A DNA stretch of 63,775 nucleotides from an uncultured Lentisphaeraceae bacterium (GCA_964482645.1 CAYZYQ010000004.1:1-63775); one strand, 5' to 3'. Positions 372 to 52,051 are shown, numbered from the stretch's first letter. Numbers and translations: made by a program. Notes: generated from the letters alone by a model not told the origin.

Positions 372-2288
372 ATGATGAAGCGCACGTTTGGAGTCGCACT
401 TGCGGCTTTCTGTATCGGATGCCTGTCCGCCGCCCAGGGCGACGTGCTGGGCGAGGCGAAGTATCTCTGGGATTTCGACTACGACATTACGGGCGACGGG
501 AACTTACAGATTGAGGAAGTTCGCGACGCCCGTCACTGGGGGTCGACGAATCTCTCCGGCTACGCGGGGACTTGGCTGCCAACTAGCATCAAGACGAATG
601 GGATCGACAAAGTCGGCCCCCAGTGGCGGACGGGTACGGTCATTCAGCCGATGCGCGGTATTACGTCCGAAGGAACGTACCTCCACTTCGCCGTCGGCAC
701 GAACATCGTCGCAAACGCGGACGGCACGTGTGTGACGAACGTCAGCGGCTGCGGCATCGAATATAATACCAGCGCGATTACGGGCAGCGTGACCGTACTT
801 CTCCGGCTGCGCGTGGATGCGTTTGACGCCTGGTGCAACGCCGAGGATTTGATTTGGGTGGTGGACAACGGCGAGACGTGGAACAATGACGCCGAGAAAG
901 CCGCCGGGTCGAACTTCGGATTCAATGCGGACAAATATGTTAAAGGCCGGGGATTTCCCTCCGTCATGTTCGGTAAACATGCGTTGAACATGGGGACGAG
1001 CATCAAAACAAACGTGTGGTATGACATCGGCATTTCCCTGCGGAATACGGGGGATGGCGGTGCCGAAGCAGTCTTCATGATCCGCGATCCCGATATGACG
1101 AACGCCGTCAAGGGCCATGTTGAAGCCAAAACGAATATGACGAAGGGTGTGATTTTCGAGCGCAAGACCTGTGCTGCCGGAAGCGGGGCGTTTATGAATG
1201 AGGCGAAGGCCAATCGTTTCATCCGCATCGGCGGTGAGGATATCGGAATCGTCGGTTCGAAAGGCGGGAGCAACGCTCGAAAATGTTTTGCGGGCGACAT
1301 CCAACGCATCGTGATGTGGGATCGTGCGCTTACGACGAACGAACTCGTCGAGGCCGCGCTCCAGACGTCTTCGCTTTTCAAGATCGGGTACGAGGACGGC
1401 GCAAACGGCGAGTTCGGGCGCGTGGACGAAATCGTGAAACCCTATGACATCGACCGTGCGCCGTTTCGCGAAATGCCGCAGACGTTGTCGGCCGCCCATC
1501 CCGTGGCCGAACTCGCGTTCACGCCGTATTCAAGATCTGTCGCTGCGCTCGGGCACATGATGCGCATCAAGGCCGCGTCGGGCGCGGCGGGGACGACGGT
1601 GCTGCGCGTATCCGTCAACGGGCACGTGGCGGACACGCTGGTCTTGTCCGCCGGAAAGGAAAAATGGTTCTACGTGAAACCCGGTCGGCTCAACGCAACG
1701 GCCAACGCGATTCGGATTGAGCGTCTGGCCACGAGCACGGCAACGTCCTTTAACTTCGACGTCGTGGAGATGTCCGGGTCGTGGCAGGTCAGCGAGACAG
1801 GTAACGGCAATAACGATATGTCAGTGGAGGGCAGTGTCCCGAGGACGTTCTATGCGGGGGACTGGAACTTCCACGGGATGCAACGCGGTCTTGTCACGGG
1901 TGCACCGAAGGTGGCGATTCGTTTTCAGATGCCGGCCGCGTTGGCACTGCGCCATGCGTTCACGTATTCGGGCGTTTGCACGGCGGTGGATGCCGGTAGC
2001 TATTTGACGCTCACGAACAGTGTTGCGAACGGCGGTCTTGGCTATCCGTACAGGAAGTGGCCGTTGAACGTGGCGGTGAACGGTCGCGAATACGTGACGG
2101 GCGAATGTATCGGGGATGGTGAAGGTTGGTCGTTCACGATTCCAAAGGGCACGTTGAACGCCGGTTGGAACGAAGTCACGATGGAGCTGGCCGTACCCGC
2201 GGACAAGGCCGCGTGCTGGACGTGTTTTGATTACCTCCGTCTGGAAGTGGAGCCGAATCCGAGCCATACGTTGCTCATTTTCCGCTGA
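372..2288 (+). CDS. Secreted protein: LamG/ConA-like domain plus two probable PL4 domain III (CBM-like) modules; C-terminus HTLLIFR
   Basis: Signal peptide MKRTFGVALAAFCIGCLSAAQG; LamG-like FAGDIQRIVMWDRALT; FKIGYEDGANGEF and WQVSETGNGNNDM resemble the start of rhamnogalacturonan lyase domain III. Start moved from the track's TTG 318 to ATG 372 (GAAAGGA upstream). Confidence 0.65.
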   Translation: MMKRTFGVALAAFCIGCLSAAQGDVLGEAKYLWDFDYDITGDGNLQIEEVRDARHWGSTNLSGYAGTWLPTSIKTNGIDKVGPQWRTGTVIQPMRGITSEGTYLHFAVGTNIVANADGTCVTNVSGCGIEYNTSAITGSVTVLLRLRVDAFDAWCNAEDLIWVVDNGETWNNDAEKAAGSNFGFNADKYVKGRGFPSVMFGKHALNMGTSIKTNVWYDIGISLRNTGDGGAEAVFMIRDPDMTNAVKGHVEAKTNMTKGVIFERKTCAAGSGAFMNEAKANRFIRIGGEDIGIVGSKGGSNARKCFAGDIQRIVMWDRALTTNELVEAALQTSSLFKIGYEDGANGEFGRVDEIVKPYDIDRAPFREMPQTLSAAHPVAELAFTPYSRSVAALGHMMRIKAASGAAGTTVLRVSVNGHVADTLVLSAGKEKWFYVKPGRLNATANAIRIERLATSTATSFNFDVVEMSGSWQVSETGNGNNDMSVEGSVPRTFYAGDWNFHGMQRGLVTGAPKVAIRFQMPAALALRHAFTYSGVCTAVDAGSYLTLTNSVANGGLGYPYRKWPLNVAVNGREYVTGECIGDGEGWSFTIPKGTLNAGWNEVTMELAVPADKAACWTCFDYLRLEVEPNPSHTLLIFR

Positions 2289-2327
2289 CGCGACGACATC
2301 CGTTTGCCGTTTCGCAGGTGAAACTGC

Positions 2328-6125: not shown

Positions 6126-7022
6126 ATGACGAAGAAGGTGGCGTTTCGAATCGGTCTCGGCCTCGCGGCCGTCTGTGTGCTGGCGGTTGGCGTGGGCGGC
6201 ATCTTTTGGTGGCGGGCGCAGCGGCGGGCGGCGGCGGTCGCCGAACGCCAGGCGCTTTTCGCGTCGTTCGGGATTGATTCGGACGGTACGGAGGATTTCG
6301 TGCCGTTGCCGCGCATCATGCCGCACAAATTGCCGGCGGCCGTGCTGGGGCGGACGCTCTTTCTCGACCGCCGTCTGGCGCAGGGACAATCCATCAAGCG
6401 AACGTGCGCGGCCTGTCACTGGCCGAATGCGGGCGGGACGGACGGGAAGTGCCACGCCGGGACGCTCACGCGGCCGTTCCCGAACGCCGCGTTTGGATCG
6501 GTCTTCCTCCAGGACGGATCGTTGACCAATTTATCCGACGTCGTGGTGCGGATGGTTGAAAGTCCCGATTTCTGCGGCGGCGGGCCGGTGTCGAACGTGG
6601 TGGCGAAACTGAACGAGGACAAGCGGCTCGTCGAGCGTTTCCAATTCGCCTACGATGGCGAGGGGTTGACGGCGGCGACGCTGGCCGACGCCGTTGTCAA
6701 TTATGCGCGGTCGCAGGTGTCGGAACCGACGGCGTTCGACGCGTTCACGGGCGGCCGGGACGATGCGTTTGACGCGCAGCAGAAAAAGGGGATGACGCTT
6801 TTCCAGCGGAACTGCCTGGCGTGTCACGACGGGCCGACGCTCGGCGGCCGCCGCGCGTCGGAGGGGCGGAAAGTCCCCGCCCTGCGCGGCCTTTCGATGC
6901 GGAAGGTCTACTTGTCGGACGGCTCGCAGACGGATCTGACCGCCGTGTTGTCGCGGATGCCCGTGGGCGAGCAAGAGGCGGCCGACCGGGCGGCGCTCGT
7001 CGCCTTTTTGAAAACGCTCTGA
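6126..7022 (+). CDS. Membrane-anchored di-heme cytochrome c peroxidase/MauG-family protein
   Basis: N-terminal TM helix; LGRTLFLDRRL; two CxxCH motifs (CAACH, CLACH). Confidence 0.75.
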   Translation: MTKKVAFRIGLGLAAVCVLAVGVGGIFWWRAQRRAAAVAERQALFASFGIDSDGTEDFVPLPRIMPHKLPAAVLGRTLFLDRRLAQGQSIKRTCAACHWPNAGGTDGKCHAGTLTRPFPNAAFGSVFLQDGSLTNLSDVVVRMVESPDFCGGGPVSNVVAKLNEDKRLVERFQFAYDGEGLTAATLADAVVNYARSQVSEPTAFDAFTGGRDDAFDAQQKKGMTLFQRNCLACHDGPTLGGRRASEGRKVPALRGLSMRKVYLSDGSQTDLTAVLSRMPVGEQEAADRAALVAFLKTL

Positions 7023-7163
7023 ACTACGGACACTCCATGGGACGGACAGGATGCTAGATTTCGGCGGGAAATTAATCTGACAGAATTGTCACATTCCGCT
7101 TGATTCCGCTTGCTCTTTTTCGCGTCGCATGAGATAATGGGCGCGTTTCTTGGAGATAGAAGC

Positions 7164-7625
7164 ATGAAAGAGATAACTGGAAACCTGTCGGCGGCCGGGT
7201 TGAAAATCGCCTTCGTGGCGAGCCGCTTCAACTCCTTCCTCGTGGAGCAGTTGATCAAGGGCGCGGCGGATGCGTTTACGCGCTTGGGTGGCGACGCAGC
7301 GGACATGGTGCTCGTCCGTGTGCCGGGCGCCTACGAGATTCCCGTGACGGCGAAGAAGCTGGCGCTCACGCGGAAGTTCGACGCGATTGTCGGCCTGGGC
7401 GCGGTCGTCCAGGGCGCGACGGCGCACGCGGGGCTGATTTGCGAGACGACGGCGCGGGCGTTCAGTGAAATCGCGCTTGAGACGGGTGTGCCCGTGGCGG
7501 ACGGCGTCGTGAGCGCGGAGAATCTGGAACAGGCGGTCGAGCGCTGCGGCACGAAGCAGGGCAACAAGGGCTTTTCGGCCACGCAGGCGGCGATTGAGCT
7601 GGCGAACGTGCTGAAGCAGATTTAA
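7164..7625 (+). CDS. ribH: 6,7-dimethyl-8-ribityllumazine synthase
   Basis: ASRFN, VPGAYEIP, GAVVQGATAH, KQGNKG motifs; GGAG RBS before ATG 7164. Confidence 0.95.
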   Translation: MKEITGNLSAAGLKIAFVASRFNSFLVEQLIKGAADAFTRLGGDAADMVLVRVPGAYEIPVTAKKLALTRKFDAIVGLGAVVQGATAHAGLICETTARAFSEIALETGVPVADGVVSAENLEQAVERCGTKQGNKGFSATQAAIELANVLKQI

Positions 7626-7659
7626 ACAATCTTATTGAGACAACAAGAGGTACATCAAA

Positions 7660-10463: not shown

Positions 10464-10466
10464 AAT

Positions 10467-11318: not shown

Positions 11319-11406
11319 TTGCGCCGACTCTGCCCGTTGCACGGCATGGTGTTGTGGAATTGACGGGGGGGTGGGCGGCGAAAAAGCGCCTTGTTCGCTT
11401 CTCCAG

Positions 11407-11434: not shown

Positions 11435-11502
11435 GGAGGAAGTTTGCAGTGGAGTAGGCTGCGGACGGAACGAGACGATTGAACGAACGAAAGGAACTTC
11501 GC

Positions 11503-14500
11503 ATGGGAAATCTGCTTGCACGGGCTGGCTTTCTGGCCGCCGCCGTTGTCCTGGCGACGCCGGGCGCATTCGCCGGCAATGTCGTCGTGGACGGGACGCG
11601 GACGATTTCGGAGGAGATCGTCTCGGTTTCCGCCGAGCGCGAACTGGGCGACGCCTCGGTCGCGAACGTCGTGCTGGCGAATGGCGGCGGCGTGTCGTTC
11701 ACGACGAACATGACTCTTTCCAAGACGTATTCGCTCGACGGCACCGGCGTCGTGGCGGTGGCCGGGGGAAGGCGGGTTGATGTGTCGGGTGTGCGTCTAG
11801 CCGTCGGTGCGGTCGGGCACGTCCTCGTCAAGCGCGGCGCGGGCACGCTCGCCCTGGGAGGCGTCGGCAAGGCGGCCGGGAAGCGGACGCGGTTCATCGT
11901 GGAGGAAGGGACGATTTCATGCAACGGCGACTTCTGGGGCGGGCATTCGACGGCGGACACGAACGTGACGATCGACGTCCGCCACGGCGCGACGTACAGC
12001 CACGGCAATTCGCACGGCGTGGTGGGGCCTGTCGAATTGACCGGCGCCACGTTCGTGAGCGCCTCGACCGGCCCTGGCTTCTGGTCTGACGCCGCGCTGT
12101 GCGGCGGCGTGACCGCCCACGCGCACGAGACGACGAGCGTCGTGCGCATGGGCTACAAGGGCTTTCTCGGACACGTCGACTACACGAACTGCGTCTTCAA
12201 CGTGGAGGACGGCGCGCGCCTCCTGCTGGACGCCACGCTGCGCGACGGCATGAACAGGGGCGCCACGAAGGCGGTCGCCTGCCGTCTGACGAAACGCGGC
12301 GCGGGCGATCTCGTGATTGCCAAGCCGGGCGAATGGACGGGCGGCACGTTCCTCGAGGGCGGCACGGTGTCCGTTGCCGTCGCGGGCGCGTTCGGCACGG
12401 GCCCCGTCGTCGTCGCGGGCGACGTCAAGCTGTACGTCGCCGCGGGCGTGACGGTCGACTTGACGAACCTGCGCGTGGATGGGACGCGCGTGCTGACGCT
12501 CGCGGGCGATGGCTGTGTGACGCTTCCCGAAACGCTTCCGGCAGGACTGTCCGTCGAAGGGCGTACGGGCGGAATCGCGTCTGTCGAACCGTACAGGGAC
12601 GGCGTTCTGCACCTGACCGGCGGCATCGTGACGGTGGACGTGCCGGCGGGCGAGACGCTGACGGTGACGGCGATGGAATCCGCCGCGGATCCGGCCGGGT
12701 TCGAGGCGGCGCGGCCTGACGTCGTCAAGACCGGTGGCGGAACGCTTGAACTGCCCGCCGGGCTTGCGGCGGCCTATGGACGGCTCAACGTCGCGGAGGG
12801 ATTCGTGAGCGTGGCCGACGAGAGTTCATTTGGCGCGAACGTCGTCACGCTGTCGGATGGCGCCGGGCTGCGCGTCCGGTCGAGCTTCACGCAGACGCGG
12901 ATCCAGATCTCCTGCGCAGGCGCGGCGACGCTCGACGTCCCGGACGGTGTCACGTTCGGCGTCACGAAGGGGCTTTTCAAGTGTCCGACAAGTGCGATCA
13001 CGAAGATTGGCGGCGGCACGTGGCAGCCCGACACGTTCATCAAGGAAAAGGAGGGCAACACAACCTATCTCAATGCCGGTGCGCGGTGGGTCGTCCACGA
13101 GGGCCGTCTCAAGTTTGCCTCGGGCGATATGTTCTGCGGCTACGGCGAAAAGCCGGCGGTCGTGCTGGAGGCGCACGAGGGCGCGGTCATTGAACTGGGG
13201 TACGCGAACGCCCACACGCCCATCGGCGACGTCGTGCTGCGCGGCGGCGTCATGCGCGCCGGGTACGGGCAGCTTGATCAGGAGGCGTTGCCGCTGGAGG
13301 GCGGAAAAATCTGGAAGGGGTTCGGCCTTAACGGCACGATTACTGTCCTGCCGTCGTCGGACGGACGCCCTTCGCGCCTTGAGGCACGTGCCGTCCATGC
13401 CGGGCACTACAACAAGACGCAGACTGGTTTCCCGACGGTGTTCGACGTGCGCGAGGGCGCTACGTTCGAGGTGGATGCGATGATCTGTCCCGGATTCGGG
13501 CCTTACGCCACGGTGCCTCCGGAAACCGGGAGCGGCGTGACGAAGATCGGCGCGGGCAGGGTGCGTTTCCTGAAGCCGCTCGCCATCACCGGACTCTTCG
13601 CGGTCGAGGCGGGCGTGGCGGAGCTTGGCCCGGGCGTCGTGATTTCCGAGAAGGCGACGGTGCGCGTGGGGGCCAACGCGGAACTCGTGCTGGGCGACAA
13701 GGCGCGGATTTCATCGACGAACGATGCGCTGGCCGGACTTTGCGCGTCGGCGGACCTCTGGCTCGACGCTTCGCGTCTGGTGGCGACGAACGGCGAAACG
13801 GTGGCGCGTGTTCCGAACCTCGGTACGGCGGGCGGTGCGTTCGTCAGGCCGACGGGCGATCTTGGCAGCGCTTTCGCGCCGACGTTCACCGTCTCCGGCG
13901 TCGGCGGACGCGGCTCGCTTTCGTTTGACGGCAAGAGTGCGCTCGTGACGGACGTCTACACGAACTACGGTGCGGCGGCGAGCGTGTTCATCGTCTCGCG
14001 CTGGACGAGCTGGGCGAATGCCGGCGGCCAGGGCAAGTGGGGCGGGCCGTTCTCGATGATGGCCCGTGCGCCGACGGCGCTGTCAAGCAATTTGGGCGAC
14101 GACAACCATGCCCATGGAGGCCTCTCCTTCCAGCACGGCGGGGATACGATCGACACGCTCTACACGTTCGGCGGCCTTTCGCAGGCGACAATCTCCAGAG
14201 TCGGCTTTGAGGTGGGACATTCATATGTAACCTGTTCGTGGCGCGACGCGGAAACCAGGAAGGGCGCGACCGCCGTGTGGCTGGACGGCGGGGCCTATCA
14301 GTGCGTGACGGGGAGTCTGAACACGGTGCGCCCGACGTGCGAGATCGATCGCGTCTGCGTGGGTGGTCGTTTGAGGATGGGACGTCCGCAGATCTTCCCC
14401 GATTCTGCCGCCAATCGAATGTACATCGGCGAGATCGGCGAAGTCCTCGTCTTCTCGCGAATGCTGACGGAGGCGGAACGCACGGCGATCGAGACGTATC

Positions 14501-15969
14501 TGCGCAACAAGTGGATGGACGCGGGACTCGACGTCTCCATCGAGATGCGCCGTGAACTGGCGAGCGCCGCGAAGGTGTCCGTGCCGGCGGGCGCGGAGGC
14601 CGCGTTCGTCGTGAACGGCGCGTCGGTGGACGGCGTGTCGCAGGGAATCGTGAAGTCCGGCGCGGGAACGCTGCGCGTCGGTGGCGGAGCGATGGGCGGA
14701 CTTGCGCTGCGCGTGCACGAGGGGACGCTCGCCTTGCGCGCGGGACGTCTGCCGTCGCGGGTGGACGTCTGGGTGGACGCGGCGGACGCCGCCGCGCGGA
14801 CGCTTGACGCGGACGGCCGCGTGACGAACGTCGTCAACAAGGGCGCGGCCGGCGGCGTCTTCAGGCGCAGTCCGCGCCCGAACGGGACCGCGGTTCCATT
14901 CGGGCCGGAATTGAAGGAGAACGGACTCAACGGCAATCCCGTCTTCGCGTTCGACGGCGATTCCTGCCTTGCGCTCGACTCCTACACGAACCATTCCGCG
15001 CCGCGTTCGTTGAGCGTCTATTTCGTCGGACGGCGGACGAAATGGGAACTGAATCCCGCCGACGCCGAGAATGGCGCCGGACTTGGAAGATGGGGCGGCC
15101 CGTTTGCGTTCGGATGCACGACCGCGACGCGGTCCGACGAGGCCATCCCCGGCATCGCCATGCTTGAGGAGCCCTCTGCGAGTACCACGCGCGTCGACTT
15201 GGGGAACGAGGGACTCTCGGTGAATACGCCGCCGACGGGTGAACCGTACCTGTTCGTGCTTCACAGTCTCACGAACGCGGCGATGGCCGCATTTGAGAAG
15301 AACGCGACGGCGACGTCCGCCGTGCCGCGTCAGGTAGGTTTGGGTTTTGCCAGTGAACCGTTCGCCATCGACCTCCTCCATCTCGGATCGCGCGTGGCGG
15401 CCGGCGGTCGGCCTCAATGGTGGGGCAAGGGGGATCTCAAGAATCGGTGTTGGTTCGGCGACATCGCGGAGTTCATTGCGACGACGGAGCCGTTGACCGT
15501 CGACGAGGAACGCGAACTGTTTGCCTATCTGCGCAAGAAGTGGCTGGACAAGGGCGACGGCCCGGCCACGCCGCCGGAATGGCTCGTCGGGACGTCGGCG
15601 ACGCCGGTGACGGATGCGGATTCGATGCTTGCGATGGCGGACGGCGCGGCCCTTGAACACGCGGCCGAGACGCTGTCGCTTGGTGTGCTGGAGACGGCGG
15701 GAACCGTCGACTGGACACGCGTCTGGTCCGGCGGCGACTCGGCGGACTTCCCGCTCTTCTCGGTGTCGGGCGACGTGTCGCTGGGCGCGGTGGAGTTCAC
15801 CGCCGCGCCGTTCCCGGCGGTCGAAGCGCGGATTCTCGACTGGACGGGCGAACTCGTCTCCGCGCCGACGTGGAACCTGTGTGGCGACGGGAGCGACGGA
15901 TTCCGCGTCGGCGCGCGCGGCAGGTCGGCCTGGCTTCTCCGCGCCGGCCTCTACATCATCCTCCGATAG
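11503..15969 (+). CDS. Large secreted protein: autotransporter-associated beta-strand repeats plus two LamG-like domains; C-terminus GLYIILR
   Basis: Signal peptide; repeats such as LTKRGAGDLVI, VVKTGGGTLEL, VTKIGAGRVRF, VKSGAGTL; two LWLDA...E..(F/L)..YL.(N/K)KW modules; GAAAGGA RBS before ATG 11503. Confidence 0.75.
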   Translation: MGNLLARAGFLAAAVVLATPGAFAGNVVVDGTRTISEEIVSVSAERELGDASVANVVLANGGGVSFTTNMTLSKTYSLDGTGVVAVAGGRRVDVSGVRLAVGAVGHVLVKRGAGTLALGGVGKAAGKRTRFIVEEGTISCNGDFWGGHSTADTNVTIDVRHGATYSHGNSHGVVGPVELTGATFVSASTGPGFWSDAALCGGVTAHAHETTSVVRMGYKGFLGHVDYTNCVFNVEDGARLLLDATLRDGMNRGATKAVACRLTKRGAGDLVIAKPGEWTGGTFLEGGTVSVAVAGAFGTGPVVVAGDVKLYVAAGVTVDLTNLRVDGTRVLTLAGDGCVTLPETLPAGLSVEGRTGGIASVEPYRDGVLHLTGGIVTVDVPAGETLTVTAMESAADPAGFEAARPDVVKTGGGTLELPAGLAAAYGRLNVAEGFVSVADESSFGANVVTLSDGAGLRVRSSFTQTRIQISCAGAATLDVPDGVTFGVTKGLFKCPTSAITKIGGGTWQPDTFIKEKEGNTTYLNAGARWVVHEGRLKFASGDMFCGYGEKPAVVLEAHEGAVIELGYANAHTPIGDVVLRGGVMRAGYGQLDQEALPLEGGKIWKGFGLNGTITVLPSSDGRPSRLEARAVHAGHYNKTQTGFPTVFDVREGATFEVDAMICPGFGPYATVPPETGSGVTKIGAGRVRFLKPLAITGLFAVEAGVAELGPGVVISEKATVRVGANAELVLGDKARISSTNDALAGLCASADLWLDASRLVATNGETVARVPNLGTAGGAFVRPTGDLGSAFAPTFTVSGVGGRGSLSFDGKSALVTDVYTNYGAAASVFIVSRWTSWANAGGQGKWGGPFSMMARAPTALSSNLGDDNHAHGGLSFQHGGDTIDTLYTFGGLSQATISRVGFEVGHSYVTCSWRDAETRKGATAVWLDGGAYQCVTGSLNTVRPTCEIDRVCVGGRLRMGRPQIFPDSAANRMYIGEIGEVLVFSRMLTEAERTAIETYLRNKWMDAGLDVSIEMRRELASAAKVSVPAGAEAAFVVNGASVDGVSQGIVKSGAGTLRVGGGAMGGLALRVHEGTLALRAGRLPSRVDVWVDAADAAARTLDADGRVTNVVNKGAAGGVFRRSPRPNGTAVPFGPELKENGLNGNPVFAFDGDSCLALDSYTNHSAPRSLSVYFVGRRTKWELNPADAENGAGLGRWGGPFAFGCTTATRSDEAIPGIAMLEEPSASTTRVDLGNEGLSVNTPPTGEPYLFVLHSLTNAAMAAFEKNATATSAVPRQVGLGFASEPFAIDLLHLGSRVAAGGRPQWWGKGDLKNRCWFGDIAEFIATTEPLTVDEERELFAYLRKKWLDKGDGPATPPEWLVGTSATPVTDADSMLAMADGAALEHAAETLSLGVLETAGTVDWTRVWSGGDSADFPLFSVSGDVSLGAVEFTAAPFPAVEARILDWTGELVSAPTWNLCGDGSDGFRVGARGRSAWLLRAGLYIILR

Positions 15970-16134: not shown

Positions 16135-19100
16135 ATGAACGAGATGGTTGGATGGACGACCGCGCGGGTGGTCGTCTTGTGTGCGGCGCTGTGCGGTGCC
16201 GTCCGTGCCGAAGAAGGCGCCACGGGGCTGACGGCGAACTGGCTGCCCACGGCGGCTGGGACGCACGATTGGTGGGATGCCGCCAACTGGGACGGTGGCG
16301 TGGTGCCGACGAATCGCGGCGACACGGCCCGCTTCGACGCGGTGGCAATCGAAGGCAATCAGACGATCGCATTGCCCAAGGGCAACGAGTTCCGGCGTTT
16401 CACGCTCGGGACCGTCTTCGGGCATACGAACCAGGTCGTCAAGTCGCCCGCACGTTCCTCGAACGGAACGACAATCCGCCAGATGTCCGTCGCAGACCCA
16501 ACTGGATTCAAGGGCGCCTGGGACCAGGCGGATGCGAAGGCGAACTGGATCGCGGAGCCGGCGGATTCCTTCGTGCCGCTTTTCGCGCAGGTCGTCGGCA
16601 CGTACATGCCGCAGTTCACCGTGGCGTCGAACCGCGCCGAAATAGGCGAAGTCATCGGAGGAGACGGTCTCGTGAAGGCGGGCGGGGGCGCGTTGACGGT
16701 TCGCGGCGTTCTTCCCTCGCTTCGGGCGAACACGCGGCTCCAGGTCGAGGCTGGGACCATGGCGCTGGCGTTTGAGGACGAGATTCCGACGGCGGTCGTT
16801 CCTGGCGCCTATCTCCATCTGGACGCGGCGCGCGCGGACACGTTCACGCTGCAGGCGGGCGACGACGGGCGCACGTACGTCTCCGAATGGCGGGACTGCG
16901 ACGGCGCGGAAATCGCCGCGACGAAACACCCAAGCGTGGCGCTCCCCTTCCTCAGTTCCGTCACCGTCGTGCGGGGCTTTCCACTCGTGGACTTCGGCGC
17001 GAGCAAGCCTTCGAACGACGCCATGAACAACCTCACCTATTGGACGGAGAAGGTCGGGCCCTGCGGCAGCCTGAGGTTTCCGAGGACGACGAAAGTCCGT
17101 GAGGTTTTCGTCGTCTTCGAGGACACGCAGCCGTCCAACACGAGTTGCTTCGTCGTGGGTGACGATAAATCCTATCACTTCCATCGCGCCAATTCGGACA
17201 CGTCCGGGCATAAGTTGCTTGACGCATCGTTTTGCGATCCGGGGTTGAAGAACAATCTCGCCATGGTCGACGGCGTCTCCTGTAGTTTCGAGTGTCAGCG
17301 GGACTGGACGCGGCTTGCGGTGGTGTCCGTCGTCTCGACGAACGACCTCTGCCTGTCCTCGCTCTGCAACGACCGCAATACGATTCGCTACGGCGGCGCC
17401 CGCATCGCGGAAGTCCTGATCTACACGAACAACCTGACCCAGGCGGAACGCGACTGGAATCATTTCGTTCTGCGGCGCAAGTGGACGCCGGGCAAACTCC
17501 CGTCAGACGACCTGCGCGAGCTCCGCATGGCGAACGGCACGACGGTGGACGTGGCCGACGGGCTGTCCGTGACGGTCGACCAGTTGAGCGTGAAGGCCGG
17601 CGCCACCGTGACGAAGTCGGGCGCGGGCAGTTTGCGCGTCCATGCCATGTCGGAGGACGGGTTCGGCCTCCAGGTGAACGGCGGGACCGTGGATTTCGTA
17701 CCGCCGGACGTTCCCGTGACGGACGACGCACCGGCGGAAGATCCGCAGATCTGGTTCGATGCCTCGTGTGCCGCGTCGCTTGTCGCCACCAACCTGGCGA
17801 ATGGCGCGGGCGGCGTCTCGATCTGCCGATGGAACGACCGCCGGCCTGAACAGACCTCGATCTTCGCCGCCACGCGCAATGGCGACACAACGTTCCCGTT
17901 CCTTGTGACGGACGCCGCGAACGGGTTGTCAGTCCTCGACTTCGGCGACGGCTGGATCTCGGAATGGGGCGCCTGGGGTGTCGCAAGCGGAACGTCCGCG
18001 CGTTTCGACATAAACAGGCACACGACGGCCTACGACGGGTTCGTGGTGATTCGTCCGAAGATGCCAAACGGCTACGACAAGAATGCGCGCACATGCCTCA
18101 ACCCGGCGTTCTTCGGGACGAAATGGCAGTCGTTCACACGCTGGGGCGGCGGCGCCGCCGTCGCGGGATATGCGGACGCGAACGTCATTTCCGCGCTTTG
18201 GGAGTTCGACGGCGTTCCGCAGGATGCGCGTACGTCCCCGGCGGTCTCCACGAATGCGTTCACCGTGGTCAGTTTCTCGTCCTCCACGCCGTGCAATGCG
18301 GGCGACCACATCGCGAACGACCGCGACATCTGCTGTGGCGGCGTCCAGATCGGCGAACTGATTCTCTACGACCGCCGCCTGACGTCCACGGAACGCAAGA
18401 CGACGCAGGCCTATCTCATGAAGAAGTGGAAGGCGAAGGAACATCCGGCGTTGGCGGAGACGGTCGAACTCGAGTCGCTAACGTACGCCGACGGCGTAGA
18501 GGCGAAAATCGAAACAGATCGCCATGTCGTCGTTTCGTCGCTCACCGCCTCCGGACCGTTCCACGTGACGGGCGGCGGGTCGGTGTCCGTCAAGGGGCTT
18601 TCGGACACGCTGACGGCGCTCGTCCTGGACGGCGGCGCATTCAGCGTGGCTTCGGACGATGCGTTCGGCGATGCGCTGTTCCACTTCGACGCCTCTGTTC
18701 CGGAAACGCTTGAATGCACGGTGGCGGTGCGGGACGGCGAAACCGTCACGAACGTCACGAAATGGCTGGACGTCCGCAACAACGGCGTGTATGCAAAGGC
18801 TTCCAGGCAGAAGCCGGTGGCGACCGCCGATCCGACGCTGCGGACGGTCGAGACGCGCAACGGGCGCACGATGCCGGTCTTGGATTTTGGCGATGTCAAC
18901 GTGAACGTCGATACGTGCCAGACGTCGGCGGGCATGAACATCGTGCGGCCGAACTGGAACGGCCATGTCCAGGAGGCGCACGTCGTCTACAGCGACGCCT
19001 ACGACTCTAACAACGGCTATGCGCAGCGCTTCATCTTCGCGGATTCGGAGGTCTATCCCTGCCATCGGGGCGAGAACGGCCAGCTCTTCGCCGCTTATGG

Positions 19101-19860
19101 CGGCGACCAGTCCGATTACGTGAAGAACGGTTACGTGGGGATTGACGGCGAAACGCATAGGTGGAATGACAGACTGACCGATCGAGCGTTCCACGTCGTG
19201 TCGCTCGCGACGTCGCAGCCGATTAAAATGCGGACGATCGCCCTCGACCGCAGCTGCCGCGCGGGCGGAAGCCGCCAGGGCGAGCTGATCGCGTTTTCGA
19301 AGAAACTATCGCCGGCGCGGCGCAAGTACGTGCAGGCGTACCTGATGTGGAAGTGGTTCGGCGAGGGGACGCAGCCCATGCTTGACCACAGCTTGTCGGC
19401 CGTCTCGCTGTGCGCGGGTGCGGTGGCGACGTTCCCGTCGTATTGGGCGCTTCGGACGGCGACGGTGTCCGGCACGGGTACGTTGTCGGCCGGATTGGTT
19501 GCGGACGTGGAGGCGCTGGCGCCGGCGGGGACGTTGGCGATTGGCGGCGACCTCTCGTTGGACGCGACGGCGGAACTTGTCTTCGACTTCGAGTCGCCGG
19601 CGTCCTACGACGTCGTGACGGTGGACGGTACGTTTACGGCGACTGCGGATACGACGATCGTGCTCAACATCGGAAAGGGCGCGGACAACTGTTCGGGCGA
19701 TTTCCCGATTCTGCGGGCGACGGCGTTCGCGGGGACGCCTCCGTCCGACTGGACGCGCGTTGTCAGCAACCAGTCGAATCGTTCGGTCGCGCTCGTCCTG
19801 CAGAACGGCGTCTTGTGTCTGCGTCTCACGCCGAAAGGTACGGTCATCTTCATCCGCTAG
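16135..19860 (+). CDS. Large secreted protein with three tandem LamG-like domains and passenger-type repeats; C-terminus GTVIFIR
   Basis: Signal peptide; LVKAGGGALTV and VTKSGAGSLRV; three (L/F)DA...E...L...R...L.(R/K/W)KW modules; GGAG RBS before ATG 16135. Confidence 0.75.
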   Translation: MNEMVGWTTARVVVLCAALCGAVRAEEGATGLTANWLPTAAGTHDWWDAANWDGGVVPTNRGDTARFDAVAIEGNQTIALPKGNEFRRFTLGTVFGHTNQVVKSPARSSNGTTIRQMSVADPTGFKGAWDQADAKANWIAEPADSFVPLFAQVVGTYMPQFTVASNRAEIGEVIGGDGLVKAGGGALTVRGVLPSLRANTRLQVEAGTMALAFEDEIPTAVVPGAYLHLDAARADTFTLQAGDDGRTYVSEWRDCDGAEIAATKHPSVALPFLSSVTVVRGFPLVDFGASKPSNDAMNNLTYWTEKVGPCGSLRFPRTTKVREVFVVFEDTQPSNTSCFVVGDDKSYHFHRANSDTSGHKLLDASFCDPGLKNNLAMVDGVSCSFECQRDWTRLAVVSVVSTNDLCLSSLCNDRNTIRYGGARIAEVLIYTNNLTQAERDWNHFVLRRKWTPGKLPSDDLRELRMANGTTVDVADGLSVTVDQLSVKAGATVTKSGAGSLRVHAMSEDGFGLQVNGGTVDFVPPDVPVTDDAPAEDPQIWFDASCAASLVATNLANGAGGVSICRWNDRRPEQTSIFAATRNGDTTFPFLVTDAANGLSVLDFGDGWISEWGAWGVASGTSARFDINRHTTAYDGFVVIRPKMPNGYDKNARTCLNPAFFGTKWQSFTRWGGGAAVAGYADANVISALWEFDGVPQDARTSPAVSTNAFTVVSFSSSTPCNAGDHIANDRDICCGGVQIGELILYDRRLTSTERKTTQAYLMKKWKAKEHPALAETVELESLTYADGVEAKIETDRHVVVSSLTASGPFHVTGGGSVSVKGLSDTLTALVLDGGAFSVASDDAFGDALFHFDASVPETLECTVAVRDGETVTNVTKWLDVRNNGVYAKASRQKPVATADPTLRTVETRNGRTMPVLDFGDVNVNVDTCQTSAGMNIVRPNWNGHVQEAHVVYSDAYDSNNGYAQRFIFADSEVYPCHRGENGQLFAAYGGDQSDYVKNGYVGIDGETHRWNDRLTDRAFHVVSLATSQPIKMRTIALDRSCRAGGSRQGELIAFSKKLSPARRKYVQAYLMWKWFGEGTQPMLDHSLSAVSLCAGAVATFPSYWALRTATVSGTGTLSAGLVADVEALAPAGTLAIGGDLSLDATAELVFDFESPASYDVVTVDGTFTATADTTIVLNIGKGADNCSGDFPILRATAFAGTPPSDWTRVVSNQSNRSVALVLQNGVLCLRLTPKGTVIFIR

Positions 19861-44120: not shown

Positions 44121-46038
44121 ACTTCTGCTTGTTGTAGGTCGTGGATGGATTTTCCAACGGGCCTTCGATGCGGAACTCGAAGAGGAGTTTGGAGAGGTGT
44201 GCGACAGACCATGAAATCGGCATGGTGATTTGGGTGTACCATTCGTCGGGCTTGGTGAACGAGACGTTCGCCTTCAAATCGAGATGATCGCGGGGGAGGT
44301 CGTAGGAACCGGATGCGTGGATGGAGAAGACCTTGCCGTCGATGAGGATGTTCGACGTGCGGAAAACGCCGTTGCTGATGGTGAAGTCGAGGCTGGCCTG
44401 CGACTGGTTGACGACGAGGGGGAGACCCGGGACGTGCTTGGCGAGCGTGGCGGTGAGTCCGGAAAAGATTTTCAACTGGGCCAGATAGCCGTCCGCGCAA
44501 ACGACGTGGCCGTGTCCGTTGAGTCGGTCGAGGCTGTCGCTCCGGAGCGGGCCGGCGAGCGTGACGGTGCCCGCAACGCGGCCATGCCGGTCGCCGACGT
44601 CGAACGCGAAGACGTCGGCGATGTCTTTCAACGGCAGATCGCCGCCCGTGATGGATACGGAGTAGGTGGCGTGGTCTTGTTTGAAGTCGGGGATGGACAA
44701 GCGGGCCGAGCCGGTCAGCGTGCCGCTGTGCGGCCCTTCGGCGCGGGCGTCCGCGAACGTGATGTCCGTGTCTTTCAGATGAAACGCGGCGGCGGCGTTG
44801 CGGAGGGGAATGCCGAAGAACGTGCCTTTCTCGAACGCGACAGTACCGTGCAAGTCGTTGAGGCGGGCATGGGTGGGGTTGACGGCCAGTCGCCCGTTGA
44901 GTGAAAGGCGCGGCGTCGTTTCCGGCACGAGGCAGTCGAGCGTCCCGTCGTTCATGACGTCCGCCACGGCGAGCGCGTTGGAAAGCGAGGTGGCGGATCG
45001 CACGTCGAAGTCCACGTAACCGATATCGTTCGTGTTGCGGTAGTAGACCGTACCGTCCATCGACGTGCCGTCCGCCAGTTGTGCGTCGAGAGGGCCGATT
45101 TTGATGTCCGCATTCTGGAACGTGTCGCGCACGAAAACGCGGATGTCGAGTTCGCCGGCGACGCCTTTGAGAGGGACGTTGTTGTAGCGGCCGCCGCGCG
45201 GGTGGAGTTTGAGGTAGATGTTGAGGTCGTTGTTGCGCAGGTTGACGTTGAATGCGCACGTCGCGTCGACGGGTTGTTCGATGTAGGTGAAGTCTTCGAT
45301 GAAGGGGATGGCATTGGTGATGTCGATTGTCTGCAACATGGGTACGATGTTCTGCGGCCGCGCCTGGCCGTCCACGCGGCCACGGACGAGCTGCCGGCCG
45401 ACGTCGAGTTCCATTCCGCCGTCGAGCGCCATGGGGACGTCCGCGTCCCGCCACTGGAGGTGAAGCCCTCGCGCCGTCATTGTCTCTTGCGTGAACTCGA
45501 CGTTTTTGATGTCGACGAACTTCGGCGTGACGCCGAGGATGTCTGGATTTTCCAGCCGGACGCTGAACGGGTGGATACGCGCCATTTGGAAGACGAGCGG
45601 TTCGTCCTTCTCCTGGAAGTCCGGTTGGCCGGGAAATTCGATTGAATCGGGGATGTAGTAGCCTTCGGGAAGGCGCGGGTAGACGAGCCGGTCGATCGTG
45701 ACGCGCCGAAGCAGCCGTTCCCATGCCCAGGGAAGGCGCGTCAGGTTCAGTTCGAGGGCGACACGCCGGGCGGCGATGACGGGCGCCGCGTGCGGGCGCG
45801 TGGCGTCGAGAACACGGACGTCCCGCAACGTCACGCCGTGGATGAAATGGAACGAGGCCGATCCCACGTGGACGACGAATCCGCCCGTCGACAATTTGTC
45901 CGTCGCATACCGCAGAAGGGACGAGGGGATTTTCTGTTCGCAGAAGACAACCGCGCCAAGGGCGAAGAAGAACAGAATGAAATGGAAGAGAAGCAAATAT
46001 TTCAGAACTCGTCCGAAACCCGCAAGGAAACTTCTCAT
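44092..46038 (-). CDS. AsmA-like (AsmA_2/TamB-related) envelope protein
   Basis: N-terminal TM anchor; C-terminal SLDFTISNGVFRTSNI...GSYDL...LFEFRIEGPLENP. Start reset to ATG 46038 because the track's start lies inside tRNA genes. Confidence 0.7.
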   Translation of the reverse strand: MRSFLAGFGRVLKYLLLFHFILFFFALGAVVFCEQKIPSSLLRYATDKLSTGGFVVHVGSASFHFIHGVTLRDVRVLDATRPHAAPVIAARRVALELNLTRLPWAWERLLRRVTIDRLVYPRLPEGYYIPDSIEFPGQPDFQEKDEPLVFQMARIHPFSVRLENPDILGVTPKFVDIKNVEFTQETMTARGLHLQWRDADVPMALDGGMELDVGRQLVRGRVDGQARPQNIVPMLQTIDITNAIPFIEDFTYIEQPVDATCAFNVNLRNNDLNIYLKLHPRGGRYNNVPLKGVAGELDIRVFVRDTFQNADIKIGPLDAQLADGTSMDGTVYYRNTNDIGYVDFDVRSATSLSNALAVADVMNDGTLDCLVPETTPRLSLNGRLAVNPTHARLNDLHGTVAFEKGTFFGIPLRNAAAAFHLKDTDITFADARAEGPHSGTLTGSARLSIPDFKQDHATYSVSITGGDLPLKDIADVFAFDVGDRHGRVAGTVTLAGPLRSDSLDRLNGHGHVVCADGYLAQLKIFSGLTATLAKHVPGLPLVVNQSQASLDFTISNGVFRTSNILIDGKVFSIHASGSYDLPRDHLDLKANVSFTKPDEWYTQITMPISWSVAHLSKLLFEFRIEGPLENPSTTYNKQKFTDWLKMKK

Positions 46039-46076
46039 GCCTGAACCCTCGAACCGCTTAACGCGCTGAAACCGAT

Positions 46077-46151
46077 TGGCAGCCCCCAGGAGAGTCGAAC
46101 TCCTCTTCTTAGGATGAGAACCTAATGTCCTAGCCGATAGACGAGGGGGCC
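46077..46151 (-). tRNA. tRNA-Glu (CUC)
   Basis: GGCCCCC...GGGGGCT-G-CCA; anticodon loop TTCTCAT. Confidence 0.95.
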
Positions 46152-46155
46152 AGTC

Positions 46156-46240
46156 TGGTGCACCCGGTGGGAGTCGAACCCACACACCTTGCGGCACAAG
46201 AACCTGAATCTTGCGTGTATGCCAATTTCACCACGGGTGC
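46156..46240 (-). tRNA. tRNA-Leu (CAG)
   Basis: GCACCCG...CGGGTGC-A-CCA; anticodon loop TTCAGGT; long variable arm. Confidence 0.95.
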
Positions 46241-48628: not shown

Positions 48629-51600
48629 ATGAAAACGACACTGAAGACGGGCGTGTTGGGCGCGGCGGTCTGCTGCGCGGCGGCGCTTTGGGGTGAAACT
48701 CTGACATGGACGGGCGCGGCTGGCGACAACGACTGGACGACGCCCGCGAACTGGTCGTCGTCGGCTCTTCCCACCTCTGACGCCACGGTCGTCTTCACGA
48801 ACAACGTCACCGTCACGCCGTCGGCCGATTTCGCCGGCGTCCTCTACGTTACGAACGCCACGGTGACGCTCGTCGTGGACGATGACGCAACGGCCGTGCG
48901 GGCGTTCTCCACCGCGCTGGACATCGGCGCGAAACTCGTGAAGGACGGCGCGGGCGCGTTGACCCTCCGCGCCGCGCCCGGCTACTATCCGGGCGGCATT
49001 CAGGTGAACGCGGGTTCGGTGACGTTCGCTGGCAACGGCGTCTTCGCCGCGCCCGGAATGTTCGGGCCGCTGTCCGTCGCGTCCGGCGCCGCCGTCACGG
49101 TTGCCGACAGTCCTGCCGCCGACCGGCATGGCGTCGTCGTCCGCGCGGAGAAGTGGGAGAAGAGTTTTGCCGACGCATGGCAGGACTTTACAAATTGCGT
49201 CGTTACGGTGACGGCGTTTGCGGACACCTGGGATGCGTTGGGCGCGTCCGGTACGGAGCGCGACCGTTGGATCCATCGGCCAGATGGCGTGTCCACGTTC
49301 CACTTGAAGGGCAACCAGACGGTTGCCGAGCCGTTCTACGCGACAAATACGTGCTACATCGCCCTCTCCCGTGCGCTCATCGCCATCCCGGCGTCCGCCC
49401 GGGTGGCGCCGCGCATTTCCGTGGACGACTACGGATTGCTCATCTGCGACGGCGTGAACTGGTCGGCGATTTATAACAACGGAAGCGTATGGCTGGGGAC
49501 GCGGCGGCTGGCGGCGGGTTGGCACGCATTGGACACGGCATACTACGAACATGCCGGCGATCACAGGCTGGACGTCCGTCTGACATCTCCGTTTTTGCCG
49601 AAGCACACGTACCTTGGCCCGAACCTCCTCTGGCGTGGCGTCTGCTTCACGGATCTCAAATTGGACGCGGACGCGACGCTCACGGTGGCGGACGGACAGG
49701 CCGTCGCGTTCGTCTGCGGGAACGGCACGTCCGTCGCGGGCAAAGTCGCGGGCGGCGCGGATGCCGTCTTCGCGGTCATGGGCGGGAAACTGGCGGCCGA
49801 CGCGGCGGCGTTCGCGTCCTTTGCGGGCAACGTCGAAGTCGCGGCCTACGGTGCGCTGGCGCTGGCGAACGTGCCGGCCGATCCGTCGTTCACGTGCACG
49901 GGCGCGGGGACGTTCGTGGCGGCGAACGAGTTGTCATTCGATTCGGCATTTACGGGGACGGTCGACGTGCCGGCGGGGACCGTCTACACGAACGAACTGG
50001 GCGATGCGGTCTCCTTCATGGGGGCGGGAACGCTTGTGACGGACACGTTGGTCGGCACGGCCGAATTCGACGGCACGGTCGTGCTGCGTGAGCGCACGGC
50101 GGGCGACATGACGGACGTGGCGGGCTTCGCGCCGCAGACCCTGCGCCTGGACGATGGAGCGTCGGTTTCGATTGCGGGAGGCGCTGCATGGAACAGTTTT
50201 GAAAAGCCGCTGCCGGACTGGAACGCGGATCGGGACGCCTGGAATCTGATCACCTATCAGGGATTCAAACGCGACTATCTGAACGAGGTCGGCATGTACG
50301 TGACGAACAATGGCGTCCTTGTGGTGACGGACGATACGGGCTGCCAGCGGAACACCGCCGTCTACACGAACCGTGCGTTCGCCGCCGAGGACATCTGGCG
50401 CATCCGCTTCACGTTCTCGTCCACCCTGCTCAACCGCTGGCCGAATGAAGTCCGCGCCGAGGCGTTCTCCTTCTTCTTGGCGAAGAGTCCGGCGGCCCAC
50501 AATCACAACACCCAGGGGGCGTATCCCGGCGACGCCTATGGGTTCAACATCTATCAGTATCGTGCTGGGGCTCAGGGGTTGACGTGGATTTTGAACGGAA
50601 ACACGGCGGAGGGCCCCGACTATAAGGAGGGCGCGATGGGGATTTCGCTTCTAAAGCCAATCGACATGGACGTGTCCTACCGCGACGGGATGCTGACGGT
50701 TGTGATGACGCAGGGCGCGGCCACGTTCTCGTCTCGGTGCGACATCTCGGAAGCGTTCATGGACGGGACGTGCCGCTATTTCGGCTTCGGCGGTGGTACG
50801 GGTTGGTGGGCCAATGCGGGTGAAATTGAAGGCGCCGGTGGTACATCCGCCGCCGTCTACTGCTACCAGACGATCAGCAACTTCACGGGTTCTGTGGTGG
50901 ACGTGTCCGCCGAGGCGGGACCTGATGTTTCGTTCACGACGGGCGACTGGATGCTAGTGAACGACATGACGCTCCTTCCTGGCGGTACGAACGGTGTGGA
51001 GACGGTGTCGTGGTCGTCTGGAAGTGTCGGTACGAATGGAACGGCCATCTGCCAGACGGCGTTTTCGCCACACCAGGCATTCTGGCTCGACTTGGACGAG
51101 CGCCTGGTGGAAGAGGTCAAGGGATGGGCGGAAGGATTGTCGATCTTCTTCCGTCCATCGGCATCGTTGGAGGGCGTGGGTGGCGGTTATGCCGGGGCGG
51201 GCAATCCGTCGCTTACGTTCCAGCATTACTTTTGGAACAACAAGTTTTTCTGGGATGAAAACGGAAGCTACTCGGCACGTGATCAACATTCAAGCGACAA
51301 CGCCACGCCGAAGTCGCTGGGAACGAACCACATTCGTATTTTCTATGACGGCGCGGGACGGTTCACGGCCACGGTGTCGCGGGGAACGACCACGAAGACG
51401 TTCAAGAAGGACTACGCGAAGATTCTGACGTGGGACAAGTTCTACATGGGTCTCAAGTCGGCCACCTCCTCCTGGGGGGCGTATTTGAAGACGCACGTGC
51501 TCGATCCCGTTGTGACGCAGCCTGTGCCGGGGACGGCGGTCGTGGACACGGTGCTGGAGGTCGTGGCGGACGCGACGGCCACGGTGGCCGTGGGTGGTTG

Positions 51601-52051
51601 GACGACGAACGACGTGGCGTCTGTTGGCTTTGCGACGACGACGCTTCAGGACGGCGGCGTGTTGAACGTGGTGTCCGCCGTGTCGAGCCGCCCGGCGGTC
51701 GTGGCATTCCGCGATGTGACGGTGAACGGCGCGACGAAGGTCGTGGCGGCGGACGGCAACGCCGTGGAGCTGGCGAACGTCGTGGGACCGTCGGCATCGG
51801 ACGTGCTGACGGTGGTAGGGAACTGGACGGCGGTGGACGGGCGTGTCACGTTCCGCGTGGACGCGGCGGCGCTGCCGACGGGCGGGCGCGTGCTGGCGGA
51901 CTTCTCGCGGGCGTCGTACGTCGGCGCGGGCAAACCGGAATTCGTCTGCACGGGGCTGAACGGCGAAGACCTGTCGGCTCGCTGGCGGGTGTCCGCGGTG
52001 AACGACGTCGTCCGCCTTACGTCTCTCGGCTTCCTGCTCATCTTCCGTTGA
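48629..52051 (+). CDS. Large secreted adhesin-like protein: passenger repeat, PA14 domain, two L-type-lectin-like domains; C-terminus GFLLIFR
   Basis: Signal peptide; TWTGAAGDNDWTTPANWS; LVKDGAGALTL; PA14-like SVDDYG...LAAGWHALDTAYYEHAG; EAFSFFLA...RYFGFGGGTG; AAGGAGA RBS. Confidence 0.72.
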   Translation: MKTTLKTGVLGAAVCCAAALWGETLTWTGAAGDNDWTTPANWSSSALPTSDATVVFTNNVTVTPSADFAGVLYVTNATVTLVVDDDATAVRAFSTALDIGAKLVKDGAGALTLRAAPGYYPGGIQVNAGSVTFAGNGVFAAPGMFGPLSVASGAAVTVADSPAADRHGVVVRAEKWEKSFADAWQDFTNCVVTVTAFADTWDALGASGTERDRWIHRPDGVSTFHLKGNQTVAEPFYATNTCYIALSRALIAIPASARVAPRISVDDYGLLICDGVNWSAIYNNGSVWLGTRRLAAGWHALDTAYYEHAGDHRLDVRLTSPFLPKHTYLGPNLLWRGVCFTDLKLDADATLTVADGQAVAFVCGNGTSVAGKVAGGADAVFAVMGGKLAADAAAFASFAGNVEVAAYGALALANVPADPSFTCTGAGTFVAANELSFDSAFTGTVDVPAGTVYTNELGDAVSFMGAGTLVTDTLVGTAEFDGTVVLRERTAGDMTDVAGFAPQTLRLDDGASVSIAGGAAWNSFEKPLPDWNADRDAWNLITYQGFKRDYLNEVGMYVTNNGVLVVTDDTGCQRNTAVYTNRAFAAEDIWRIRFTFSSTLLNRWPNEVRAEAFSFFLAKSPAAHNHNTQGAYPGDAYGFNIYQYRAGAQGLTWILNGNTAEGPDYKEGAMGISLLKPIDMDVSYRDGMLTVVMTQGAATFSSRCDISEAFMDGTCRYFGFGGGTGWWANAGEIEGAGGTSAAVYCYQTISNFTGSVVDVSAEAGPDVSFTTGDWMLVNDMTLLPGGTNGVETVSWSSGSVGTNGTAICQTAFSPHQAFWLDLDERLVEEVKGWAEGLSIFFRPSASLEGVGGGYAGAGNPSLTFQHYFWNNKFFWDENGSYSARDQHSSDNATPKSLGTNHIRIFYDGAGRFTATVSRGTTTKTFKKDYAKILTWDKFYMGLKSATSSWGAYLKTHVLDPVVTQPVPGTAVVDTVLEVVADATATVAVGGWTTNDVASVGFATTTLQDGGVLNVVSAVSSRPAVVAFRDVTVNGATKVVAADGNAVELANVVGPSASDVLTVVGNWTAVDGRVTFRVDAAALPTGGRVLADFSRASYVGAGKPEFVCTGLNGEDLSARWRVSAVNDVVRLTSLGFLLIFR

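Follow-up and report, generated by a model that had tools for sequence, protein, structure and literature searches.

Four secreted proteins with a common C-terminal tail

We analyzed a stretch of 63,775 nucleotides from an uncultured Lentisphaeraceae bacterium (GCA_964482645.1, CAYZYQ010000004.1:1-63775), which is called the window here and numbered from its first letter. Four of its genes encode large secreted proteins, P1 to P4, that end in a short hydrophobic peptide closed by arginine, named the tail below. The original prediction had given the four ends as HTLLIFR, GLYIILR, GTVIFIR and GFLLIFR, and the + strand translations bear them out (P1 ...EPNPSHTLLIFR, P2 ...LLRAGLYIILR, P3 ...LTPKGTVIFIR and P4 ...LTSLGFLLIFR). 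The features are listed below. The signal-peptide extents are heuristic and were drawn from the N-terminal basic and hydrophobic pattern.

372..2288, + strand: P1, secreted protein of 638 residues with several jelly-roll or carbohydrate-binding-module (CBM)-like domains and the tail at its end (translation)
372..437, + strand: P1 signal peptide, approximate extent, MMKRTFGVALAAFCIGCLSAAQ, a basic n-region and then an uncharged hydrophobic run
2259..2285, + strand: P1 tail PSHTLLIFR, with the stop TGA at 2286-2288
11503..15969, + strand: P2, secreted protein of 1488 residues with beta-helix (PATR) and LamG-like parts and the tail at its end (translation)
11503..11574, + strand: P2 signal peptide, approximate extent, MGNLLARAGFLAAAVVLATPGAFA
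15940..15966, + strand: P2 tail RAGLYIILR, with the stop TAG at 15967-15969
16135..19860, + strand: P3, secreted protein of 1241 residues with repeated LamG-like modules and the tail at its end (translation)
16135..16209, + strand: P3 signal peptide, approximate extent, MNEMVGWTTARVVVLCAALCGAVRA
19831..19857, + strand: P3 tail PKGTVIFIR, the consensus form, with the stop TAG at 19858-19860
48629..52051, + strand: P4, secreted protein of 1140 residues with beta-helix and legume-lectin-like domains and the tail at its end (translation)
48629..48694, + strand: P4 signal peptide, approximate extent, MKTTLKTGVLGAAVCCAAALWG
52022..52048, + strand: P4 tail SLGFLLIFR, with the stop TGA at 52049-52051

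The N-termini of P1 to P4 are all signal-like, with a basic stretch and then a hydrophobic one. Residues 495-624 of P1 match the CBM-like Pfam family PF14683, and Foldseek relates P1 to the rhamnogalacturonan-lyase CBM-like and other jelly-roll folds and P4 to legume lectins. When the last 160 residues of the four proteins were compared by BLASTP and MAFFT, no shared C-terminal domain emerged.

Autotransporter-associated repeats had been proposed for three of the four carriers. The repeat model TIGR02601 (PATR) scores above its cut-off of 19.85 bits on P2 (35.4 bits, E=6.4e-9) but below it on P4 (16.5 bits), and it has no match on P1 or P3, so the proposal stands for P2 alone at that threshold. 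The lack of a C-terminal autotransporter barrel, claimed at the same time, agrees with the Pfam search, which found no such domain in P1 to P4. Two secreted enzymes of the window, a GH5 glycoside hydrolase (...VQEEL) and a fucosidase (...LKCTR), have signal peptides and no tail, as first noted.

The window sequence is present in gut metagenomes. P2 and P3 are spanned end to end by contigs of the gut metatranscriptome run X13, and over them (window 11400-20000) the X13 word depths clearly exceed those of the DNA run, which suggests in vivo expression of both, although contig depth is a poor measure of expression and DNA carry-over is possible.

Form and register of the tail

The right-justified alignment of 47 non-redundant tails gives the consensus P(-9)-x-G(-7)-[T/F](-6)-hydrophobic x4-R(-1)-COOH, roughly nine residues long. 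Pro stands at -9 in 31 of the 47 and Gly at -7 in 45, while -6 is Thr in 27 and Phe in 7. Positions -5 to -2 are V, L, I, M or F. The last residue is Arg in 41 tails and Lys in 4 (45/47 together). The hydrophobic run thus spans -6 or -5 to -2, a strand-length row of 4-5 beta-branched and aromatic residues, and is closed by one terminal basic residue.

The motif had been described as seven residues starting with Gly or His. Its terminal pattern is real, but the tail is longer than that because of the Pro at -9, and His is exceptional. The His of P1 at the Gly position is an exception even inside its own family.

Such ends could in principle arise by chance, from a DNA repeat where genes end, or from a longer signal that is truncated or read through, but nothing except the small first sample of four speaks for this explanation, and we give it next to no credence. 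In a rough set of 36 window proteins (about 16,500 residues), the pattern [GH].[LIVFYM]{4}R closes four chains and has no internal occurrence, and none of the other 520 six-frame open reading frame (ORF) ends (at least 60 residues) carries it. The composition-based p is 5.9e-5 per position, giving a P of ~7e-13 for at least 4 of 36, a value that is indicative only, as the pattern was defined post hoc. The P2 and P3 sequence through the stops is identical in independent public DNA and metatranscriptome runs, which also speaks against an artefact. Chance is excluded as the source of the four window tails.

The stops of P1 to P4 are mixed (TGA, TAG, TAG and TGA, respectively), and the in-frame sequence beyond them is non-coding and neither hydrophobic nor basic. 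Read-through or truncation of a longer signal is thereby ruled out. A DNA repeat or a terminator element at the gene ends is ruled out as well, since the tails are encoded by different codons and followed by unrelated DNA. Among 238 retrieved homologues, the same pattern is terminal 121 times versus 20 internal occurrences in 277,404 residues. The tail keeps an almost invariant register with respect to the chain end.

Conservation among homologues

For three of the four proteins, the homologue searches show that no other part of the C-terminal region is as well conserved as the tail. P4 has 23 orthologues with 35-98% identity, and all but one (P0010) end in G-x-hydrophobic x4-[RK]. The 21 homologues of P1, down to 23% identity, are all tailed with the end P-x-P-x-G-T-hydrophobic x4-R, found also in the form P-x-P-S-G-T. 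P3 is present in 23 contigs, and 27 of its 28 homologues, down to 22% identity, have a tail-like end, mostly L-x-L-x-P-K-G-T-hydrophobic x4-R; a few variants have His or Tyr last or a run that includes a polar residue. The exception is P0072, the most distant P3 match, which is tailless. The phmmer search with P2 gave 594 matches among 1.84 billion representatives. Among the best 150, the tail is strict in 72, and many of the rest are either near-misses, with one polar residue in the run or with His or Gln last, or gene fragments.

Among the P4 orthologues, codons change non-synonymously while the hydrophobic class is kept, and the DNA past the stop is unrelated in the distant ones. Thus, selection acts on the peptide and not on a DNA or RNA element.

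The P4 relatives in the GTDB collection belong to metagenome-assembled genomes (MAGs) labelled Kiritimatiellae, Kiritimatiellia or uncultured Lentisphaeraceae. The homologues are named 'hypothetical protein [Kiritimatiellae bacterium]', the sole name at NCBI, or 'autotransporter-associated beta strand protein' by cluster look-up.

Two kinds of departure from the tail were observed. Variant tails occur on some proteins, including P0010, P0187, P0189, P0219 and P0128. Part of them have Arg at -3 and two hydrophobic residues after it (...GTLIRVL, ...GTLLRVF, ...PTLIRLW and ...GTLIRML), while in the remainder His or Gln takes the place of the final Arg. The variants may represent a sister signal used in another lineage. 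Separately, three distant LamG-repeat relatives of P2 (P0166, P0180 and P0194) are tailless and end at the LamG helix ...YLxxKWG, and their N-terminal segments GFSLVEV, GGFSFIAI and AGFSLT resemble prepilin-type signals. Related cargo may therefore use pilin-like display in other lineages.

Occurrence on unrelated carriers

We scanned JGI metagenome contigs for the back-translated PKGTVxxxR followed by TRR. Of the 111 matches, 108 continue with TAA, TAG or TGA and 3 with TGG, and 92 terminate ORFs that are at least 100 residues long, most of the others being cut by contig ends. Chance matches would have TGG in about a quarter and rarely end long ORFs, and the true stop after 108 of the matches counts further against an artefact. 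In viral contigs (2.9 million), the pattern gave no match, and on this basis we reject a phage origin of the glycine-rich carriers.

The metagenome carriers form 22 families without mutual BLAST similarity. The Pfam domains found among them include F5/8 type C with Gly_rich_2, PA14, GLEYA and Laminin_G_3, and nothing in Pfam covers the tail. By type, the families comprise LamG, PA14, F5/8-C, glycine-rich, PATR and CBM-like proteins. Related MAG loci add a LamG/CBM-type carrier of 1153 residues (...PRRGTVLIYR) and one of 635 residues (...PRDSTLLLFR). Tail genes can be dense, with four in the 64-kb window and three within 23 kb at one locus in a related MAG.

The tail lies 3-10 residues past the last folded domain, often after a Pro-rich spacer. 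Several carriers have a proline-rich linker directly before it, such as ...AAHLPPPPPKGTVIIVR and the poly-Pro example PPPPPKGTVIIVR. The smallest carrier, with 118 residues (18921-19277 of locus L001, GCA_964386385.1 contig CAYLRN010000002.1), consists only of a signal peptide, an acidic low-complexity part and the end ...RPPAGFFIIVR, and would make a natural minimal test cargo.

Two further observations concern the tail genes. In L001, two tail proteins (6373-8280 and 10001-13438) have near-identical signal peptides, MKTATLKTGVLGAAACCVAALWGE and MKTAALKAGVLCAAACCAAALFGE, and that of P4 is of the same type. The stop TAG is unusually frequent in tail genes: it follows 72 of the 111 pattern matches (loci L027-L137), ends P2 and P3 as well, and in the same metagenome loci closes 27 of 48 tail genes versus 65 of 191 other long ORFs. 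Lineage, or the context that follows CGN, may account for this excess.

Association with export

The original prediction expected the tail to go with signal peptides. Among the called genes of eight non-redundant loci, a crude test for an N-terminal hydrophobic segment found one in 11 of 11 tail proteins versus 39 of 116 others (Fisher p = 1.7e-5, to be read with the caveats that several tail proteins are mutually orthologous and that the heuristic also catches membrane anchors). Most of the complete metagenome carriers have a signal peptide too. A clearly cytoplasmic protein with the tail was found in none of the loci examined. The tail marks a subset of the exported proteins, mostly large non-catalytic binding proteins.

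The tail in structure models

The AlphaFold2 model of P4, built with orthologue alignments, has a mean predicted local distance difference test score (pLDDT) of 74. Its last strand is residues 1127-1132, followed by coil at 1133-1140 with pLDDT <50 at 1136-1140. In the AlphaFold model of P1 (predicted template modelling score 0.82), the last strand (615-626) ends the CBM-like domain, and the remainder (627-638) is modelled as coil at a pLDDT of about 53.

The tail could be an ordinary structural element, namely the last beta-strand of the carrier's own C-terminal domain, paired in cis. The P3 and P4 families do have an L-x-L strand and a P-x-G turn before the tail, a possible hairpin. Against this, the tail is left unpacked in the P4 and P1 models, follows at least 22 unrelated families or domain types, and occurs behind poly-Pro linkers and on the disordered protein of 118 residues. 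We consider the cis strand very improbable, and for the same reasons the earlier suggestion that the tail completes the carrier fold by strand addition is not supported. The model and linker data are consistent with a free strand that would be open to another partner.

Such a strand might simply be a sticky end. It would be aggregation-prone and guarded by gatekeepers (Pro, Lys and Gly before it and Arg after it), and the lectins would dock on each other or on a scaffold by strand exchange without any sorting machine. The contiguous beta-branched and aromatic run of strand length, its unpacked state in the monomer models, its short and often Pro-rich separation from the last folded domain and the non-enzymatic binding modules of the carriers all fit this idea. 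However, the carrier folds are unrelated, so a common acceptor groove would need to belong to some other protein, and the idea then becomes hard to tell from a receptor model. The Arg strictly at the last position also fits the recognition of a chain end better than generic strand pairing. Donor-strand complementation in the chaperone-usher pili and the type V pili of Bacteroidia likewise has a terminal strand unsatisfied in its own subunit and able to enter the sheet of a partner, but the tail carriers are not pilins, have no common acceptor-groove fold and keep their hydrophobic residues contiguous. No usher, chaperone or pilin-like genes were seen near the tail genes. Hence, docking by the sticky end appears unlikely.

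Comparison with known sorting signals

The PEP-CTERM signal has the form VPEPS..h..RRR, and the LamG/PATR-type proteins of Verrucomicrobiota often bear it. The tail resembles the tripartite domains (PEP-CTERM/exosortase, LPXTG, GlyGly-CTERM, MYXO-CTERM and PGF-CTERM) in its extreme C-terminal position, its Pro/Gly signature, its hydrophobic residues and its Arg. As with them, several copies occur per genome stretch on unrelated proteins exported by the Sec pathway, and the carriers here are surface-type LamG and beta-helix proteins of a bacterium of the Planctomycetes-Verrucomicrobia-Chlamydiae (PVC) group. The tail differs in that its run is 4-5 residues and not a helix, that it has exactly one basic residue, which must be the last, and that neither a match to a hidden Markov model nor a sortase-like gene was seen, the latter in the loci read.

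The myxosortase preprint of Haft (bioRxiv 10.1101/2023.06.07.544157) gives seven criteria for the tripartite C-terminal sorting domains. Four concern the sequence (C-terminal position, about three invariant residues, a hydrophobic segment of transmembrane length and 2-5 basic residues) and three the carriers (several per genome, with N-terminal signal peptides and otherwise unrelated). The tail shares five of the seven, namely the terminal position, the multiple copies, the signature residues, the signal peptides and the unrelated carriers. It lacks the two that define the mechanism, the segment of transmembrane length and the basic cluster.

The tail may accordingly be suspected to be a mini PEP-CTERM, the substrate of an exosortase-type membrane transpeptidase that would cut near P-x-G and join the protein to a lipid or a glycan. 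Besides the five shared criteria and the frequent PEP-CTERM on similar Verrucomicrobiota proteins, the sequence VPNPSGTLLILR in P1 homologues resembles the start and the end of PEP-CTERM. However, with one Arg and a run of 4-5 residues the tail cannot sit in the membrane where exosortases act, and no exosortase gene was seen in the loci read (the window and the related loci). No PEP-CTERM-like end occurs in its place in the best 150 P2 relatives or in 646 kb of metagenome loci. The full proteins match no known sorting model of Pfam or NCBIfam, and eight isolated tails have no NCBIfam match at E<=10. Since the two mechanism criteria fail and no CTERM model matches, the tail is a miniature PEP-CTERM lookalike and not a member of the class, and we regard the exosortase route as improbable. 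These results agree with the earlier judgement that the tail is far too short for a PEP-CTERM-type transmembrane helix, and the frame does not continue past the stop. A match to a characterised sorting domain, which would have refuted the original prediction, was not found in Pfam or NCBIfam.

The C-terminal domain (CTD) of type IX secretion (T9SS) in Bacteroidota is likewise a C-terminal tag common to many unrelated signal-peptide proteins, and is thought to act after Sec in outer-membrane transit and surface attachment. The tail differs in its ~9 residues, its coil state in the models, its phylum and the unrelated upstream regions of its carriers. The tail proteins have no match to TIGR04183 or Por_Secre_tail. 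A T9SS CTD folds into a beta-sandwich some 70-100 residues long (PMC4804311), and the tail is not a domain of this kind.

The beta-signal of the beta-barrel assembly machinery (BAM), as at autotransporter ends, is also of strand length, at the free C-terminus and with a Gly a few residues upstream, and three tail carriers have passenger-like beta-helix sequence (above the TIGR02601 cut-off only in P2). Here, the carriers lack a barrel, the hydrophobic residues are contiguous and not alternating, and the last residue is Arg and not Phe or Trp, so the tail is no beta-signal. A small OMP_b-brl protein of the window (~26863-27438, equal to L003 20729-21304) ends in ...GVQYSFGGESGL, a canonical ...GVQYSF with a six-residue extension.

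The eukaryotic peroxisomal targeting signal PTS1 (-SKL) and KDEL follow a like logic, being very short, portable and fixed in register to the free carboxyl end. They differ from the tail in sequence, compartment and kingdom, and the analogy implies no homology. Functionally, the tail would be among the C-terminal sorting signals, and structurally it is outside every described class. It is apparently unnamed: no description of such a motif was found in the full-text-searchable papers, and prior notice outside these is possible.

Proposed role of the tail

On balance, we lean to the view that the tail is a portable C-terminal sorting or attachment tag of Kiritimatiellia-type (PVC) diderm bacteria, read via its free C-terminus. 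The carriers would be exported by Sec via the cleavable N-terminal signal peptide. In the periplasm, a shared envelope component would bind the short extended hydrophobic strand between the Gly and the carboxylate of the terminal Arg. The simplest binding mode would be beta-strand addition, in a pocket measuring from the chain end. This component, a receptor or a processing enzyme, would direct the lectin- or adhesin-like carriers to the cell surface or hold them there, possibly with cleavage or transfer at the invariant Gly. The strict spacing from Gly(-7) to the terminal Arg suggests the pocket that measures from the chain end, and the strand-length run of beta-formers suggests the beta-augmentation.

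As for the unnamed sorting signal of the original prediction, its portability, terminal position, link to signal peptides and lack of a model match are borne out. The sorting or anchoring role itself we infer, and with it the reader, the binding mode and the cleavage.

Several points weigh against a sorting tag. Low pLDDT is common at chain ends, so the uncertain tails of the models are weak evidence by themselves. Most of the nearby signal-peptide proteins are tailless (GH5, GH20, GH88, GH92, a sulfatase-modifying enzyme and a solute-binding protein), and with so many signal-peptide enzymes lacking it, export as such does not require the tail. The window yielded no candidate receptor, barrel or protease dedicated to the tail. 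Clustering of 517 neighbour ORFs from the 111 metagenome loci gave no recurrent non-tail family, a result that would be expected for a many-to-one system encoded elsewhere. Moreover, a hydrophobic strand ending in Arg is unusual for the binders of C-terminal peptides, PDZ domains usually preferring a hydrophobic last residue.

A processing protease could also read the tail for destruction. As a degron or quality-control tag for a periplasmic tail-specific protease, it would control the turnover of large secreted proteins. Tail-specific protease substrates are recognized in a chain-end-dependent manner and are hydrophobic, as the tail is, and the window has an M48 peptidase gene (37054-37866), though nothing ties this gene to the tail. 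On the other hand, strong purifying selection is difficult to reconcile with a degron carried by dozens of abundant surface-type proteins, the tail genes are well represented in the metatranscriptome, and a terminal Arg is not a known preference of Prc/Tsp-type enzymes. A degron is thus a far-fetched explanation.

Beyond the sorting tag as such, the wider claim is a new envelope sorting pathway of Kiritimatiellota and related PVC bacteria, in which a free C-terminal decapeptide, in place of a transmembrane anchor or a folded CTD, would deliver dozens of lectin- or adhesin-like proteins to the cell surface by a receptor or transpeptidase outside the known sorting-enzyme families. We see a substantial chance for this claim, though one below even.

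Genomic surroundings

The window is about 61% G+C and has genes for PFK, PGI, FBA, LytB, LptF/G, an LpxA-like protein, a NusA/IF-2 region and DapA/B, together with glycosidases and defence-like genes. The four tail genes are scattered among the housekeeping genes and the glycosidases, in no operon with an export gene, and no sortase-like gene was found in the window.

Upstream of P4 (46077-48379) are tRNA-Glu and tRNA-Leu (46077-46240), a Zeta-toxin/AAA_33-like gene and an AAA_14/DUF4143 gene. The ORF at 44092-46197 on the - strand overlaps the tRNAs, so its real start is further in. Just downstream of P4 (52076-53896) is an AAA-ATPase_like and PDDEXK_9 gene. In L001 and L020, the same two ATPase families as beside P4 again adjoin tail genes or the GH5 gene.

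A stretch at 54813-58630 has a MoxR-type AAA gene (54813-55823), an N6_N4 DNA methylase, an unannotated ORF of 307 residues and an AlbA_2/HATPase_c_4 and HTH protein, and may be a small restriction-modification or defence insertion. In L026 (10471-18662), a BREX-type cluster (BrxA, BrxB, BrxC and a methyltransferase) with two TIR-domain genes and a caspase-like C14 peptidase adjoins a P3-family tail gene. The segment 33800-38000 of the window has a G+C of 0.54-0.57 versus about 0.62, and includes ORFs without Pfam matches (35810-36830) as well as the M48 peptidase gene.

Implications

Kiritimatiellia and their relatives are common polysaccharide degraders of animal guts and sediments. If the tail is a sorting tag, annotators could use it to predict the surface-displayed proteins of these mostly uncultured bacteria, and the tail counts per genome would be a handle for phylogenetic profiling of the reading machinery. 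The known bacterial sorting signals would also gain a class that needs no membrane-spanning segment, and the barrel-less autotransporter-like passenger proteins in Kiritimatiellia and relatives would be explained. If true, the finding bears on how Kiritimatiellia display their many large sugar-binding proteins.

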